From positions 2,232,001-2,296,000 of the forward strand of contig JAQOWU010000008.1 of the NCBI GenBank assembly GCA_030867685.1: a stretch of DNA of 64,000 nucleotides, written 5' to 3'. This stretch comes from Wickerhamiella versatilis. Its lineage: Eukaryota. Below the pieces are notes generated by a model that ran no database searches, was not told the DNA's origin, and was given only the letters and a program-made list of their open reading frames with translations. The position numbers were made by a program, and so were the translations under genes. This document shows, in pieces, positions 12,845 through 59,243 of this stretch (positions are counted from its first letter, which is position 1; the number at the start of each line of letters is the position of its first letter).

Positions 12845-12880
12845 GCCTGCAGGCCAAACTTACATAAAGCAGTCTTTTAG

Positions 12881-13435
12881 ATGCATGGAATTCTCGGGGT
12901 CCTTATATGGACAGTTGGGGCGCTATCGGCCTTATTGGAAGGATCAGTGACAGGCTTAATTCCTTCGGACTATCGATTGACTACCCTTACACTTGAGGAT
13001 GTCACCACGGGTGACGAACGGCAATATCATCTTGGCCCAAACGGTACCTTCGCTGTGGTAGTACCACCAACTCCTGAGGGATTCATTTTCGGCCTGGAGA
13101 GTTCCTCTTTGAGCCTCCCGTGGCGTTATCATGTTGTCTCTAAAGGCGATGGGGAGACTCTAATTTACAAGGTGTTACATGGACATGGTATCAACGATCA
13201 TGCCGCTCAATTAGGCCAACCATTGGTGATTTCTGAATGGACGCGTAAACGCCTTGTAACTGAAAGGCCAGTTTTCAGCATCTGGGAGATGATTAGGACC
13301 CCCTCGGTGGCTATGTCACTCGTGGCTTTAGGAATGGTGTTTGTAGCGCCGAAGCTTACCAGCCTGGCCGAAGAGCAAGAGGAAGCAGCAGAGGATCAGA
13401 AGGGAGGCGAAGTTAATGTGGTTAACAAAAAATAA
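12881..13435 (+). CDS. ER membrane protein complex subunit 7-like (EMC7/Sop4)
   Basis: Signal peptide, beta-rich lumenal domain (NGTFAV), ERPVFSIWEMIRTP followed by TM and PKL. Confidence 0.7.
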   Translation: MHGILGVLIWTVGALSALLEGSVTGLIPSDYRLTTLTLEDVTTGDERQYHLGPNGTFAVVVPPTPEGFIFGLESSSLSLPWRYHVVSKGDGETLIYKVLHGHGINDHAAQLGQPLVISEWTRKRLVTERPVFSIWEMIRTPSVAMSLVALGMVFVAPKLTSLAEEQEEAAEDQKGGEVNVVNKK

Positions 13436-13510
13436 GATAAGAGAATTCACTCGGGATCACCGAAGATTATTTTAGAAACATTTCGTGTATTTAATGCATT
13501 ACAAAATAAA

Positions 13511-14647
13511 CTAGAGACTATACTTTGATACTGGTCCTAGATAACTGGATCCGCCAGTAGTAGTAGTGACTTCGCGATAAAGCTCTTGCCGCGCTGCCGG
13601 CATGTTAGGTGCCTCCTCCATTATCTCAGATTCATTAGCCCTTCTTGCAGGCACTGAATCCTCCTCATCTGGTGTCGAATTAAGATCCTCGTTCTCTTGG
13701 TACTCAATATCTGGCTCATCTTCGTCAAAATCGAGGATCATTTCACCCCAGCGCTTTCCCAGATTTTGGGGCTTGTCCTTTGAGGGCCATGACTTATTCG
13801 GATTCTTTTTCACACTGGCAGCCCATGGAGGTAACGCATCAGGTCTAAGTCCCAAAGCAGAGCGGAGTTTCTCACTAAGTTTGCCAGGACGAAGATCAGG
13901 GTTGAAAGGAAACGGTGAATTTTGTCCTGACGTCTGTCCGTATTCAGACAGGCTGGGCTTAGTTTGGGAGCCGAAAAAAGCTGCATGTAGCTTTCTATAA
14001 TCCATATCCAGCCGACCAAGCTTTGGCTGGACACGTTCACGTGTTTTTTGACGTAAAGTGTCTGAATCTTCGGCTACCACATCTCGTAGCATCATGATTC
14101 CTGTCTCCTTAATGTTATCAGGCAAGCGATAAGGACGTTGAGCTCGAGTATTGGAGCTCTCATGCCTTCCCTGCCATGTAGACGGCACTGGCACGGCACC
14201 TGGTGCTGACTTTAGAGCATAAAGGAGGGCGGGGTCCTTGGCATCAACATCCCACCATTCAACAAGTTCCGGCTGCGGAACAGCTTCTTTCAACATTGCC
14301 AGACTCGGTTTCGTGTCTCTGCTTTTCTCCTTGGTATTCGAATCATATATAAAGTCCTTTGATGTCTCTATACGAGCTTCATCTGATTGCTGCCTCTCAG
14401 GCATCTCTGAGCTTTCGCTCACTACCTCCGCATTTTCATTATTGGCATTTACATCACTGCCATTGCTTTGAAATCTTCCAACTATATTCTCATATTCTCG
14501 GAAAAGGCTATTGCTCTGCAAGCCACTCATAAGAGATTCGAGAGAACTTGTTGATGGCTCTTGCGCTCCAGGAGAAGAGCGCTCAATATTTCGATCACTA
14601 TCTGTGTTATTGCGGCTCATCTTACCAGTTCCTACACTTCGAGGCAT
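13511..14647 (-). CDS. CUS1: U2 snRNP SF3b subunit (SF3B2/SAP145); start at ATG 14647 or 14620
   Basis: PELVEWWDVDAKDP, VPVPSTW, RERVQPKLGRLDMDYRKLHAAFF, PSP motif RPGKLSEKLRSALG..PPW. Confidence 0.92.
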   Translation of the reverse strand: MPRSVGTGKMSRNNTDSDRNIERSSPGAQEPSTSSLESLMSGLQSNSLFREYENIVGRFQSNGSDVNANNENAEVVSESSEMPERQQSDEARIETSKDFIYDSNTKEKSRDTKPSLAMLKEAVPQPELVEWWDVDAKDPALLYALKSAPGAVPVPSTWQGRHESSNTRAQRPYRLPDNIKETGIMMLRDVVAEDSDTLRQKTRERVQPKLGRLDMDYRKLHAAFFGSQTKPSLSEYGQTSGQNSPFPFNPDLRPGKLSEKLRSALGLRPDALPPWAASVKKNPNKSWPSKDKPQNLGKRWGEMILDFDEDEPDIEYQENEDLNSTPDEEDSVPARRANESEIMEEAPNMPAARQELYREVTTTTGGSSYLGPVSKYSL

Positions 14648-14707
14648 CACGCATGCTCAGGGGATAATCTTGTATTGTGACTAAACCGACCTTAGAGCAT
14701 TCAGGAA

Positions 14708-56244: not shown

Positions 56245-58073
56245 ATTTCATATACATCGCTGATACCTTTTATGAACTGTCCCACTCGATCTGACCCTAT
56301 TATACGCTCAAGTTTTATCGCGTCCCATTGGGAATACAAGACTTCACATTTTAGCATGTCGGGGTCGACTTGTTGTTCAACAACTGTTCGTGCCAGATAA
56401 CGTACAATCTCTTTATAAAAAATTGGGTTATCGGGAAGTCCGTAAAAAACGATTTGCCTTACCCCCTTTAAGGCGTAGCGACGATAGTGATGAAGTCGAG
56501 CACTATATAGCATAATCTTAGTTCTACCATCAGCAAAGAATGTCCTTCCTCTGCTAATTTGACCTTGGGGAGTATACTCACTCAAGGCGGCAAAACTATA
56601 ATCTTCATGATCAAGCCAGTTACGAACCCGTACGAAGTCAAAATATGAGGGAACAACAATCAATATTCCCTGTGGGTCTGGTGTTTTCATTATGCTAGGC
56701 AATATGGCTTGCGTAAAGTGCTCGAATCTCTGATTAGAATCCTGGGCATAATTTTTGGGGCTGAGCCGAATCAATAGTTGACGAATGTGTATCCCCAGTG
56801 TTTTAAGGATACCCTCACATTTTGAACGACATCGAAGCTTGCCTGCAACATTCAATGAGTATTTTGTAAAGGAGTGATTCATCTCAGGAGTTGTAAACTC
56901 AGTAAAAAATAATGTTTGTCTTAAATAACGAGCTTGATCGTCAAGATACCAGTTTCTTATCCTGCTGAAGTCGCAGCCATGAGCGTCACGAGGTATCTTA
57001 TTCAAATTTTGTAATAGAACCTCAAGGTTGTCCCAGGATTGCATTTGAATTGCGTCCAGCTGGTCAACTACGCATATTTCAATACTGCTTAAGAAATCCC
57101 ATTCCCGCTTTTTATCTCCCTCGTCACCTACGATTAGACGCAGTCCTAATGGAGACCCTACTATAATATCACTGGTGTAGAATGAGGAATATAGCTTGAG
57201 AGCTTGGCGTGTGAATTTAATACCCATACAAAAGAGATCATTAGTATTTCCACCGAATAGTTTCTGAAAATCAGCTGGTTTGGACTCAAGACCTCCCGAT
57301 GGGCCATCAAAAGAGTCCGTAAATCTCTTTCGATTTTGTATTTGTCCGAGTCCACTTACTTCTGCTAGAGTATCAACAAATCGCTTGGCAGATTGTCTCG
57401 TTGGCAAAATTACCAACACTTTTGGTCGGGTAAACCCCTGATCCCTGATCTCCTCCTCCTCACCTTTGTTTATCCGCAAATTATTTTTAATAACACGATC
57501 GCGTGTCTTGTAAATGTGGTTTACAATATGAAGCACCCATAAACGCTGGATTTCCTCATAATTGTGCCAATTGCGTCCAGAATAAAGTATATCTTTGTAG
57601 CTAAAAAAAGGACTACTCAAATCAGCCTGTAGTGGCGTGAATTCACCATTTGCGCGAGCCCATGGCAATTGAAGACGATGCTTAACTTTCAAGTCAGAAA
57701 AATTAAGCCTGCTGTCTACTTTTGGTCGAAATGTTTCGGGCTCCGGAGTCAGAAATTGTGTTTTGGATCCTAAAAAGTCAATTCTACGAGCATTCCACCT
57801 CTCAGGTGTATTGATAACCGGTGGAGACGCAAAATGTGTTTCGAACGGATCCTCCATATTACCCTCGTCATCGTCATCCACTACTATTTCTTCGTCCGAA
57901 TCATTGTCTGACGCTTCCCCAGATGGGTAGCCCTCAATATCGCCATGCGTAACACCTGCAGATATTTTTACATCCCTCTCCATTTCCTTCTTTTGTCTCT
58001 TTGGTTGCTCTCCATCGTCCAAGAGTGTTAGAAGAGCCCTGTATGCTCTTTTGCCGTCTTCTGAAGAAGACAT
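56238..58073 (-). CDS. UTP25: U3 snoRNA-associated protein 25; likely ATG 58073
   Basis: [62 protein letters not shown]. Confidence 0.95.
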
Positions 58074-58140
58074 ATGAAACTTTATCGAGGGCAAGGGTTT
58101 GTTGCTGGACCATTTTAAATAGATACTTTTTAAGAATAAA

Positions 58141-59184
58141 TTAGGCCTCATAGAATGGGAGCGGCTCTTGTGAACTAAAATTATTCGGCTCAGCCATGAT
58201 AGGTGGTAGAACTCGAACCGGAACTTCCAGCCAGATCGATTCAGTACCCGGATCTAGCCATACAAAGACAAACATTGTATGCTCTGCCTTGAAAAGCGCA
58301 GTATGAGTGTCGTATGTACCTATTTTCAACGTAATTCTACGGATTAAACTGAGTAAATCCGTGGTACCTGGTCTTAATGTAGTGTTGCATTCAACATCTA
58401 CAAGTGAAAAGCCGGGCACTAACTCGAATTCCGCATTCTTCTGCATCGGCCTTAAGATGGGTTGAATAAGTATCTTGAATCTTCTCAATCTTAATATATG
58501 GCTATCTTTTTTGCTGATTGACAAATTTACCACGAGATTTAAACTTTGAGGATCGTGTTGAAGTCCTGATTTCGGGACCCCAACAGTAAGAACCACATCA
58601 TCATTAGTGACATTATGAAACCAATGGCCTTTGAAATTTTTGATATATAAGTGCATCCCCCGCGGTGAGGGTATATTTGCAATTGGAAATACCGATATAT
58701 CGACAGCGGACTTCAAATCACTCGCGAGAAAGGATGGGCGAGAGATACTGCAGCAAAGCTCCCAAAATACACCAGTATTCTCTGAAAGGAAAAAAGAACC
58801 AGGTATATTTTCTGCTAAAAGGTCATTAATTGCAAAATTGAATGAAAAGTTGTGCTTTCCCCTGCTCAACTTCCGCTTATGCTTGGCCCCCAGTGCCTTC
58901 ATCAAAATTGGCAGCGGATAAAGTTGCTGCTCAGACTTGAAACGTGTGCACTTCTTTGCTTGAAGATGTCGATTTTTGAAGTTTGACTGCATATCTCCCG
59001 TTTCAGATGGAACCAAAAGCACTGCATATTCAGTGCAAACCAGAGAAACTGAGATAGAAGAAATTGATAGTTCGTGAAGCAATTCTAGTACAACATCACC
59101 GGTTATTGAATCTCCACTTACGTAGAAGGGATTATTTCGATCCAAATCAATGGATATTTTACAACTTGGTCCAAATGGCACCAT
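58141..59184 (-). CDS. Arrestin-related trafficking adaptor (Art10-like)
   Basis: Arrestin-N start (ISIDL..FYVSGDSITGDVVL), GKHNFSFNF, C-terminal LPFY PY motif. Confidence 0.7.
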   Translation of the reverse strand: MVPFGPSCKISIDLDRNNPFYVSGDSITGDVVLELLHELSISSISVSLVCTEYAVLLVPSETGDMQSNFKNRHLQAKKCTRFKSEQQLYPLPILMKALGAKHKRKLSRGKHNFSFNFAINDLLAENIPGSFFLSENTGVFWELCCSISRPSFLASDLKSAVDISVFPIANIPSPRGMHLYIKNFKGHWFHNVTNDDVVLTVGVPKSGLQHDPQSLNLVVNLSISKKDSHILRLRRFKILIQPILRPMQKNAEFELVPGFSLVDVECNTTLRPGTTDLLSLIRRITLKIGTYDTHTALFKAEHTMFVFVWLDPGTESIWLEVPVRVLPPIMAEPNNFSSQEPLPFYEA

Positions 59185-59243
59185 CTGTTACCATTTTATT
59201 ACTAATTGTAAAAGTCGAGGCACACGGGTAGAGAGAGCCCAAG

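Follow-up and report, generated by a model that had tools for sequence, protein, structure and literature searches.

The window analysed here, 64,000 bp of contig JAQOWU010000008.1 of the yeast Wickerhamiella versatilis (positions 2,232,001 to 2,296,000), contains six head-to-head gene pairs, with 36, 15, 34, 21, 26 and 59 bp between their start codons (Table 1), all at the places given in the original prediction. The source yeast is compact and intron-poor, with a genome of 9.88 Mb in 8 contigs, 44.6% GC and about 75% coding DNA (from 334 kb examined). RNA alignments cover 9,210 bases of the window (31836-41045) and with them three of the six pairs, STE50/DFM1, thioesterase/UBX4 and 40110/VMA5 (the first partner of the last pair is named by its start position); the reads come from 4 runs (X9, X10, X12, X13) of 2 studies, all unstranded. 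In the 40110/VMA5 pair both mRNAs begin in or beside the 26-bp spacer and overlap by at most about 15 nt, and the mapped mRNA of DFM1 has a 2-nt leader.

Table 1. Genes and spacers of the six divergent pairs, with two further genes for which RNA 5′ ends were mapped (aa, amino acids; in the motif, the hyphen stands before the first transcribed base)
Feature	Coordinates	Strand	Remarks
RNase III-domain gene, 362 aa	11756..12844	-	ATG at 12844; PF00636 at residues 39-128
36-bp spacer	12845..12880		without initiator-like word
184-aa gene, "EMC7" of the original prediction, name unconfirmed	12881..13435	+	open reading frame
99-aa gene, tentatively HSBP1-like	14708..15007	-	atlas score 0.85 for HSBP1
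15-bp spacer	15008..15022		TAAGC-A; predicted plus-strand 5′ end 15015, 8-nt leader
RRG7, 178 aa	15023..15559	+	PF10356; homology from the ATG at 15023
STE50-like gene, SAM and RA domains	31728..32432	-	expressed, RNA without joints
34-bp spacer	32433..32466		13-mer ACGTAATAGTTAG at 32454-32466; mapped DFM1 5′ end 32465
Derlin gene (DFM1-like)	32467..33162	+	PF04511; template-switch ends; 2-nt leader
VMA9-like gene, V-ATPase subunit e, 72 aa	33435..33653	-	PF05493; 5′ ends 33653, 33671
Gene with 98-nt leader	36135..36670	-	5′ end 36670, first ATG 36572
Thioesterase-family gene	36946..37623	-	PF03061; expressed
21-bp spacer	37624..37644		without TTAC/GTAA or initiator-like word; read direction flips
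UBX4/TUG-like gene	37645..38823	+	TUG-UBL1
408-aa gene, family unassigned	38884..40110	-	GTG start; homologue; read ends pile at 40102; no intron
26-bp spacer	40111..40136		same 13-mer ACGTAATAGTTAG at 40123-40135
VMA5, V-ATPase subunit C	40137..41309	+	PF03223; read ends pile at 40142-40149
Arrestin-domain gene	58141..59184	-	Pfam match; out-of-frame ATG 10 nt upstream
59-bp spacer	59185..59243		between arrestin gene and ICE2
ICE2	59244..60497	+	PF08426

Start codons and spacing of the divergent pairs

Spacers of ordinary size would result if the true starts lay far downstream, the weak point which the original prediction had itself named. This proved not to be the case, as Pfam domains precede the next in-frame Met in STE50 (SAM domain from residue 8, next Met 15), UBX4 (TUG-UBL1 from residue 5, Met 32), VMA5 (residue 11, Met 18), the arrestin gene (residue 11, Met 65), ICE2 (residue 11, Met 79), DFM1 (residue 27, which is model position 15, Met 29) and the RNase III-domain gene (residue 39, Met 53), and the homology of RRG7 agrees. 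The thioesterase domain begins at residue 111 and the next in-frame Met is residue 68, hence this start is not fixed by homology; the same applies to the start at 12881, whose protein has no Pfam or PDB match. On both sides of the 15-bp spacer the frames contain further upstream ATGs (15040 and 15037 for the small open reading frame, 14846 for RRG7). Comparison with homologues suggests that 15007 is the better start of the former, giving 99 aa against the 96 aa of its homologue (63% over 59% of the query), and that 15023 is the better start of RRG7, whose long form shows similarity from residues 60-63 onward, which corresponds to 15023.

The open reading frame starting at 40110 was predicted correctly as far as its extent is concerned: a 57%-identical homologue aligns across all 408 residues, with 23 of the first 24 residues equal, and the sequence is thus coding up to 40110. 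Its initiator, however, is GTG, the first in-frame ATG being codon 257. The conservation of the N-terminus fits an extra constraint on DNA that would double as the VMA5 promoter; no comparable N-terminal conservation was seen between the small open reading frame and its homologue. As regards function, the homologue of the 40110 protein has no Pfam match and the atlas scores are below 0.9; a search for related-species DNA around VMA5 returned a weak, unrelated metagenome locus as its sole match. Judged by homology, the first AUG (GUG in one case) is shown to yield the full conserved protein. This yeast has little Kozak bias, 29 of 93 starts having A at -3.

Tiny divergent spacers are a genome-wide trait, and the window lies at the rich end. 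In 27 stretches of 10 kb sampled outside the window, with pairs called automatically, the median head-to-head spacer is 243 bp (n=36), 6 of the 36 being no longer than 60 bp and 10 no longer than 100 bp, while the medians for tandem and convergent spacers are 287 bp (n=67) and 110.5 bp (n=40). The corresponding count for the hand-curated head-to-head pairs of the window is 6 of 12 at 60 bp or less (Fisher P 0.049 against 6/36). Among the 10 sample pairs separated by at most 100 bp, 16 of 20 genes have Pfam matches. Divergent spacers are thus shorter here than tandem ones, the opposite of the usual order reported for 45 yeasts, with medians of 517 (divergent), 405 (tandem) and 158 bp (convergent) (PMC6993858). 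Genomes in the clade of Wickerhamiella and Starmerella (W/S) are known to be compact, with mean intergenic lengths of 370-549 bp (10.1101/399394). The first ATGs overlap in four sample pairs, by 2-47 bp, and in each of these pairs one partner has a second Met close by. The overlap takes the form CATG at L021:2243-2244 (dUTPase/Hsp70) and L029:5390-5391 (MutL homologue/unknown), and at L022:6973-6985 the first ATGs of a head-to-head pair are 13 bp apart. One sampled stretch, L004 (G000:C2:20001-30000, 18% GC, from a 34-kb contig), is probably mitochondrial; it was included in the spacer counts and excluded from the motif counts below.

RNA 5′ ends and promoter arrangement

A template-switch oligo in the reads of X12 and X13 marks 5′ ends. 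The mapped ends are those among the ends listed, besides which there are 93 further ends and 99 loose ends. The end of DFM1 at 32465 (71 and 42 reads) gives the 2-nt leader; in VMA9, one end at 33653 coincides with the A of the AUG, i.e. a 0-nt leader (134 and 62 reads), and a second at 33671 gives an 18-nt leader (229 and 95 reads). Two of the four mapped ends (DFM1 and the 0-nt end of VMA9) thus fall within the 12 nt that delimit short leaders in S. cerevisiae. A pyrimidine-A step is found at all four, and none is preceded by a run of G, which argues against strand invasion. The VMA9-like gene (33435-33671, minus strand) is strongly expressed.

In X9 and X10 the reads pile up 3-27 nt inside the template-switch ends. 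The piles of VMA5 at 40142-40149 (plus strand) and of the 40110 gene at 40102 (minus strand; 24/48, 20/41, 14/35 and 23/49 reads) therefore place the true 5′ ends at about 40110-40137, and two divergent ends lie close together (piles 40 bp apart), as is typical of a bidirectional promoter; within the spacer the predicted ends are 40134 (plus) and about 40116 (minus). Read depth falls on the partner side of DFM1/STE50 from 96.6 to 14.5 in X12 and from 76.8 to 11.7 in X13, and of VMA5/40110 from 74.2 to 31.4 and from 86.1 to 27.4; for thioesterase/UBX4 it falls from 118.3 to 28.2 in X12 and merely from 98.4 to 69.3 in X13. Depth contrasts across the spacers are small in X9 and X10. In X12 and X13 the read direction flips at all three covered spacers. 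Thus, of the two possibilities raised in the original prediction, nearly leaderless mRNAs are supported within the RNA-covered pairs by DFM1, VMA5 and the 40110 gene, while the data speak against long 5′ untranslated regions running over the partner and forming double-stranded RNA in STE50/DFM1 and 40110/VMA5, and test them weakly in thioesterase/UBX4.

A TTAC/GTAA site is present in five of the six spacers, as had been noted, and the comparison with same-length upstream DNA of other genes gives P = 0.018 (uncorrected). Some 4-mer class, however, attains five of six spacers in 13.8% of shuffles (post hoc P 0.14), and the word that is enriched is strand-biased, initiator-like and one-sided in three of the six spacers, so that a symmetric TTAC/GTAA element working in both directions finds no support. 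Of 130 non-window genes, 30 have this initiator-like word, TA[AG][GT][CT]-A, no more than 45 nt from the ATG, against 15.0 ± 3.5 in shuffles (maximum 26 in 1000), and at -10..0 it is found 13 times in sense versus 2 in antisense; since it was derived from 3 mapped ends and a k-mer list that includes sample genes, the test is partly dependent. It predicts the 5′ ends 15015, 32465 and 40134. In the DFM1 and VMA5 spacers it is preceded by an ACGTAA site, presumably bZIP-like, to form the shared 13-mer ACGTAATAGTTAG; none of 1,500 shuffles yields such a shared 13-mer (longest 11). The exact 13-mer was rejected as a genome-wide element, with 2 copies in 9.88 Mb. Its ACGTA core is present in 10 of 19 sample matches within 40 nt of a start. 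TATAWA is absent at -20..0; between -60 and -21 relative to the ATG its frequency is 3.1-4.2 per kb, the same on both strands.

Upstream promoter contacts lie some 30 bp from the 5′ end under the classic model, with TATA at about -30, that Yarrowia follows (PMC7849388), and 5′ ends less than about 30 bp apart would consequently place each core promoter on the first codons of the partner. We infer that promoters lie inside the partner's coding sequence with nearly no RNA overlap, i.e. that the two possibilities of the original prediction merge into one. Each gene of a tight pair would start transcription within or beside the spacer, at a pyrimidine-A step and often at the initiator-like word. 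The leaders would be about 0-25 nt long and the mRNAs would overlap little or not at all, as seen for DFM1 and VMA9 and as expected for the rest; for VMA5 and the 40110 gene the observation holds to within about 25 nt. By comparison, 37-63 bp is quoted for leaders in conserved yeast pathways (PMC7849388). Two pre-initiation complexes probably alternate on the same DNA, and the first AUG or GUG is presumably used even on the shortest isoforms.

Tolerance of short leaders and competing explanations

In S. cerevisiae, leaders up to 12 nt long let scanning pass on to later AUGs and provoke nonsense-mediated decay (NMD) (PMC3668365, Arribere and Gilbert 2013), and the level of eIF1 governs the use of cap-proximal AUGs in vitro; the question has been raised, on the strength of in vitro work and mutants, whether in living cells eIF1 sets the minimum leader length and NMD keeps short-leader mRNAs rare (PMC3668365). 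Control by eIF1 and NMD are the known obstacles to short leaders in that yeast, and both look altered in the window yeast. Its sole eIF1 (L031:1456-1785, minus strand; the other two SUI1 matches are frames of 534 and 191 aa) carries RTGKK in place of yeast RNGRK 33-37 (N34T, R36K), with KS-M instead of KT-L/I in the loop neighbourhood. It is therefore changed in hairpin loop 1, the feature of yeast Sui- alleles. Among 64 listed proteins the loop reads RNGRK in 58, RSGRK in 2, RNGCK in 1 and RTGKK in 1, the region being absent from 2; the single RTGKK protein is identical to the eIF1 of the window yeast and forms a cluster of its own, with 16 contigs. The identity of this eIF1 is 76% to Trichomonascus, 75% to Starmerella and Magnusiomyces, 73% to Wickerhamiella and 72% to Yarrowia. 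Together with the small genome, these values suggest a place in the W/S group. N34 lies at the codon's first base; mutants of N34 and R36 are reported to raise near-cognate starts or to slow growth (PMC11706245; 10.64898/2026.08.14.744980). The likeness to the Sui- alleles (N34A/E, R36A/G/E) lies in the same two residues and in the one GUG start seen here; N34T and R36K differ in being natural, more conservative and known here from sequence, and non-AUG starts seem to be rare.

NMD is apparently lost. Profiles of UPF1_Zn_bind, UPF1_1B, Upf2 and UPF3 found no match in the genome, an absence that is not proven, there being no control genome in which they did match and no completeness on record; the three UPF1-family helicase matches are SEN1, HCS1 and DNA2, and the eukaryote-only control profiles IF4E and eIF_4G1 both matched. 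Judging by these profile searches, the short-leader genes would not be NMD substrates as their S. cerevisiae counterparts with an out-of-frame next AUG are. Intron loss has been reported for this lineage (PMC12322030), and the loss of NMD may merely accompany it. Neither leaders of 0-2 nt nor an altered eIF1 loop nor a loss of NMD turned up in earlier publications on the W/S group, in a search that left most subscription papers and supplements outside; "nonsense" does not occur in the parts of PMC13376923, PMC12322030 and PMC11140947 that it reached.

According to the mechanism we propose, the hairpin-loop-1 changes N34T and R36K would relax start-codon control, short leaders would be tolerated, and the loss of Upf1/2/3 would spare leaky transcripts from destruction. 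That the two genome features, which are seen, underlie the tolerance of short leaders, a causal link of our own, is put forward as a tentative possibility. The more inclusive reading, in which translation from capped mRNAs with leaders of 0-3 nt, and from the GUG start, is routine and low-stringency eIF1 together with NMD loss let divergent genes collapse until core promoters sit in the partner's coding sequence, is more doubtful still. Several observations weigh against the proposed explanation as a whole, beyond the unproven absence of the Upf proteins. The closest eIF1 homologue among those listed (82%) has the canonical RNGRK; N34T and R36K are gentler than the mutants assayed in yeast; and a clear non-AUG extension was found in 1 of 138 complete long frames (the 40110 gene), from which eIF1 would not appear to be grossly relaxed. 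On the RNA side, a base-exact 5′ end is available for one of the 12 paired genes, longer isoforms may exist beyond the ends listed, and the reads, mostly 95-99% alike to the window (about 97%), come from other strains. The 18-nt isoform of VMA9 is the commoner one (about 62%) and short isoforms may be poorly translated; one of the four mapped ends, 36670 (80 and 45 reads), lies 98 nt from the first ATG; and the initiator-like word is missing from three of the six spacers.

Or perhaps the short 5′ ends are real but tolerated noise, with protein made mostly from isoforms of 15-35 nt within the spacer, ultra-short ones accumulating for want of NMD and the eIF1 changes being neutral? The preponderance of the longer VMA9 end over the 0-nt end and the rarity of non-AUG extensions would agree with this, as would the compactness already known for the W/S clade (10.1101/399394) and the hundreds of short-leader genes of S. 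cerevisiae that also have longer isoforms (PMC3668365). A spacer of 15-26 bp, on the other hand, holds both leaders near or under a limit of 12-20 nt unless the RNAs overlap; the next AUG of DFM1 is in frame, which makes its 2-nt isoform independent of NMD loss; and drift is an unlikely cause of two changes in a loop kept by 58 of 64 homologues. We regard this explanation as unlikely. As a rejected candidate we record widespread non-AUG initiation: at least 60 codons precede the first ATG in 4 of the 138 frames, of which one resembles an antisense shadow, two lack a coding score and one is the 40110 gene.

Long 5′ untranslated regions starting inside the partner, with sense-antisense overlap and double-stranded RNA, are very improbable for the tight pairs. 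Overlapping transcripts have been reported in a W/S-clade gene cluster (10.1101/399394), the genome has no match to the Piwi/Argonaute profile, which would free such overlap from a cost through RNA interference, and sample pairs with overlapping first ATGs do exist; moreover, the pairs at 12845, 15008 and 59185 lie outside the RNA-covered stretch, and a motif at 59257 (minus strand) could give the arrestin gene an overlapping leader of 73 nt. Against this stand the end piles and depth drops at two of the three covered spacers, the flip of read direction at all three, the ATGs present within 60 nt upstream of 6 of the 12 paired genes, which long leaders would take in, and the second Met in all four overlapping sample pairs. 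Still less credible, and in our view next to impossible, are short 5′ introns ahead of the apparent starts, with a first exon antisense in the partner and the minus-strand CTAAC...CAG as branch point and acceptor. Upstream of STE50 and of the 40110 gene a CAG is indeed preceded by CTAAC at 25-26 nt, and STE50 has GTAAGT donors upstream as well, but no splice joints occur in the 9,210 bases in 4 runs (2% threshold) and about half of the depth stops at 40102 in X9 and X10; for the three RNA-covered pairs such introns are largely refuted. Near-leaderless mRNAs arising from tiny divergent spacers, rather than overlaps that form double-stranded RNA, are therefore the explanation we consider fairly probable.

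Neighbouring features, related systems and significance

Several features near the pairs deserve mention. The gene at 36135-36670 (minus strand), whose product has no Pfam match, has an open frame with an in-frame ACG 5 nt from its 5′ end, which may be a second non-AUG start. The arrestin gene and the gene at 56238-58151 overlap by 11 bp (58141-58151), where the former ends and the latter starts; a 4-bp overlap is shared by two convergent genes at 53761-53764. Long spacers of 0.6-1.1 kb (8504-9506, 44802-45908 and 35507-36134) are exceptional in this compact genome; part of the last is nearly without reads, and the second contains the tRNA at 45654-45725, tRNA being all that an Rfam scan returned. 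At 25452-26153 (minus strand), a 233-aa Ser/Thr-rich gene faces a 118-aa antisense open reading frame which the codon model scored higher; it is the minus-strand gene that looks real.

Compact genomes in the W/S clade are already known, as are bidirectional promoters and short leaders. Like the short-leader genes of S. cerevisiae, the genes described here have several 5′ isoforms each and leaders shorter than cap-proximal initiation normally requires; what sets them apart is the altered eIF1, the failure to find Upf1/2/3, leaders that go down to 0-2 nt and divergent spacers of 15-59 bp. The bidirectional promoters of budding yeasts also give rise to a divergent pair of mRNAs between two genes; a promoter size of 115 ± 50 bp is quoted for them, whereas many spacers here are below that size (PMC6993858). 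The mammalian TISU is likewise a short element linked to where the RNA begins as well as to a start near the cap, while the word found here lies upstream of the 5′ end (PMC9658832). The TISU consensus SAASATGGCGGC was not seen around the AUGs when start contexts were inspected, no scan having been run. Very short leaders and packed genes in compact, intron-poor genomes are also characteristic of microsporidia and Giardia, which are reduced parasites; the window organism, by contrast, is a yeast with eIF4E and eIF4G.

The GTG start and the 72-aa VMA9 are a warning to annotators that automated calling overlooks genes of this yeast or cuts them short. The 15-36 bp between start codons set a lower bound on the DNA needed for two back-to-back RNA polymerase II genes. 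A yeast of culturable type in which housekeeping genes carry leaders of 0-2 nt, the eIF1 loop has changed and Upf proteins are not detected would offer a natural experiment.

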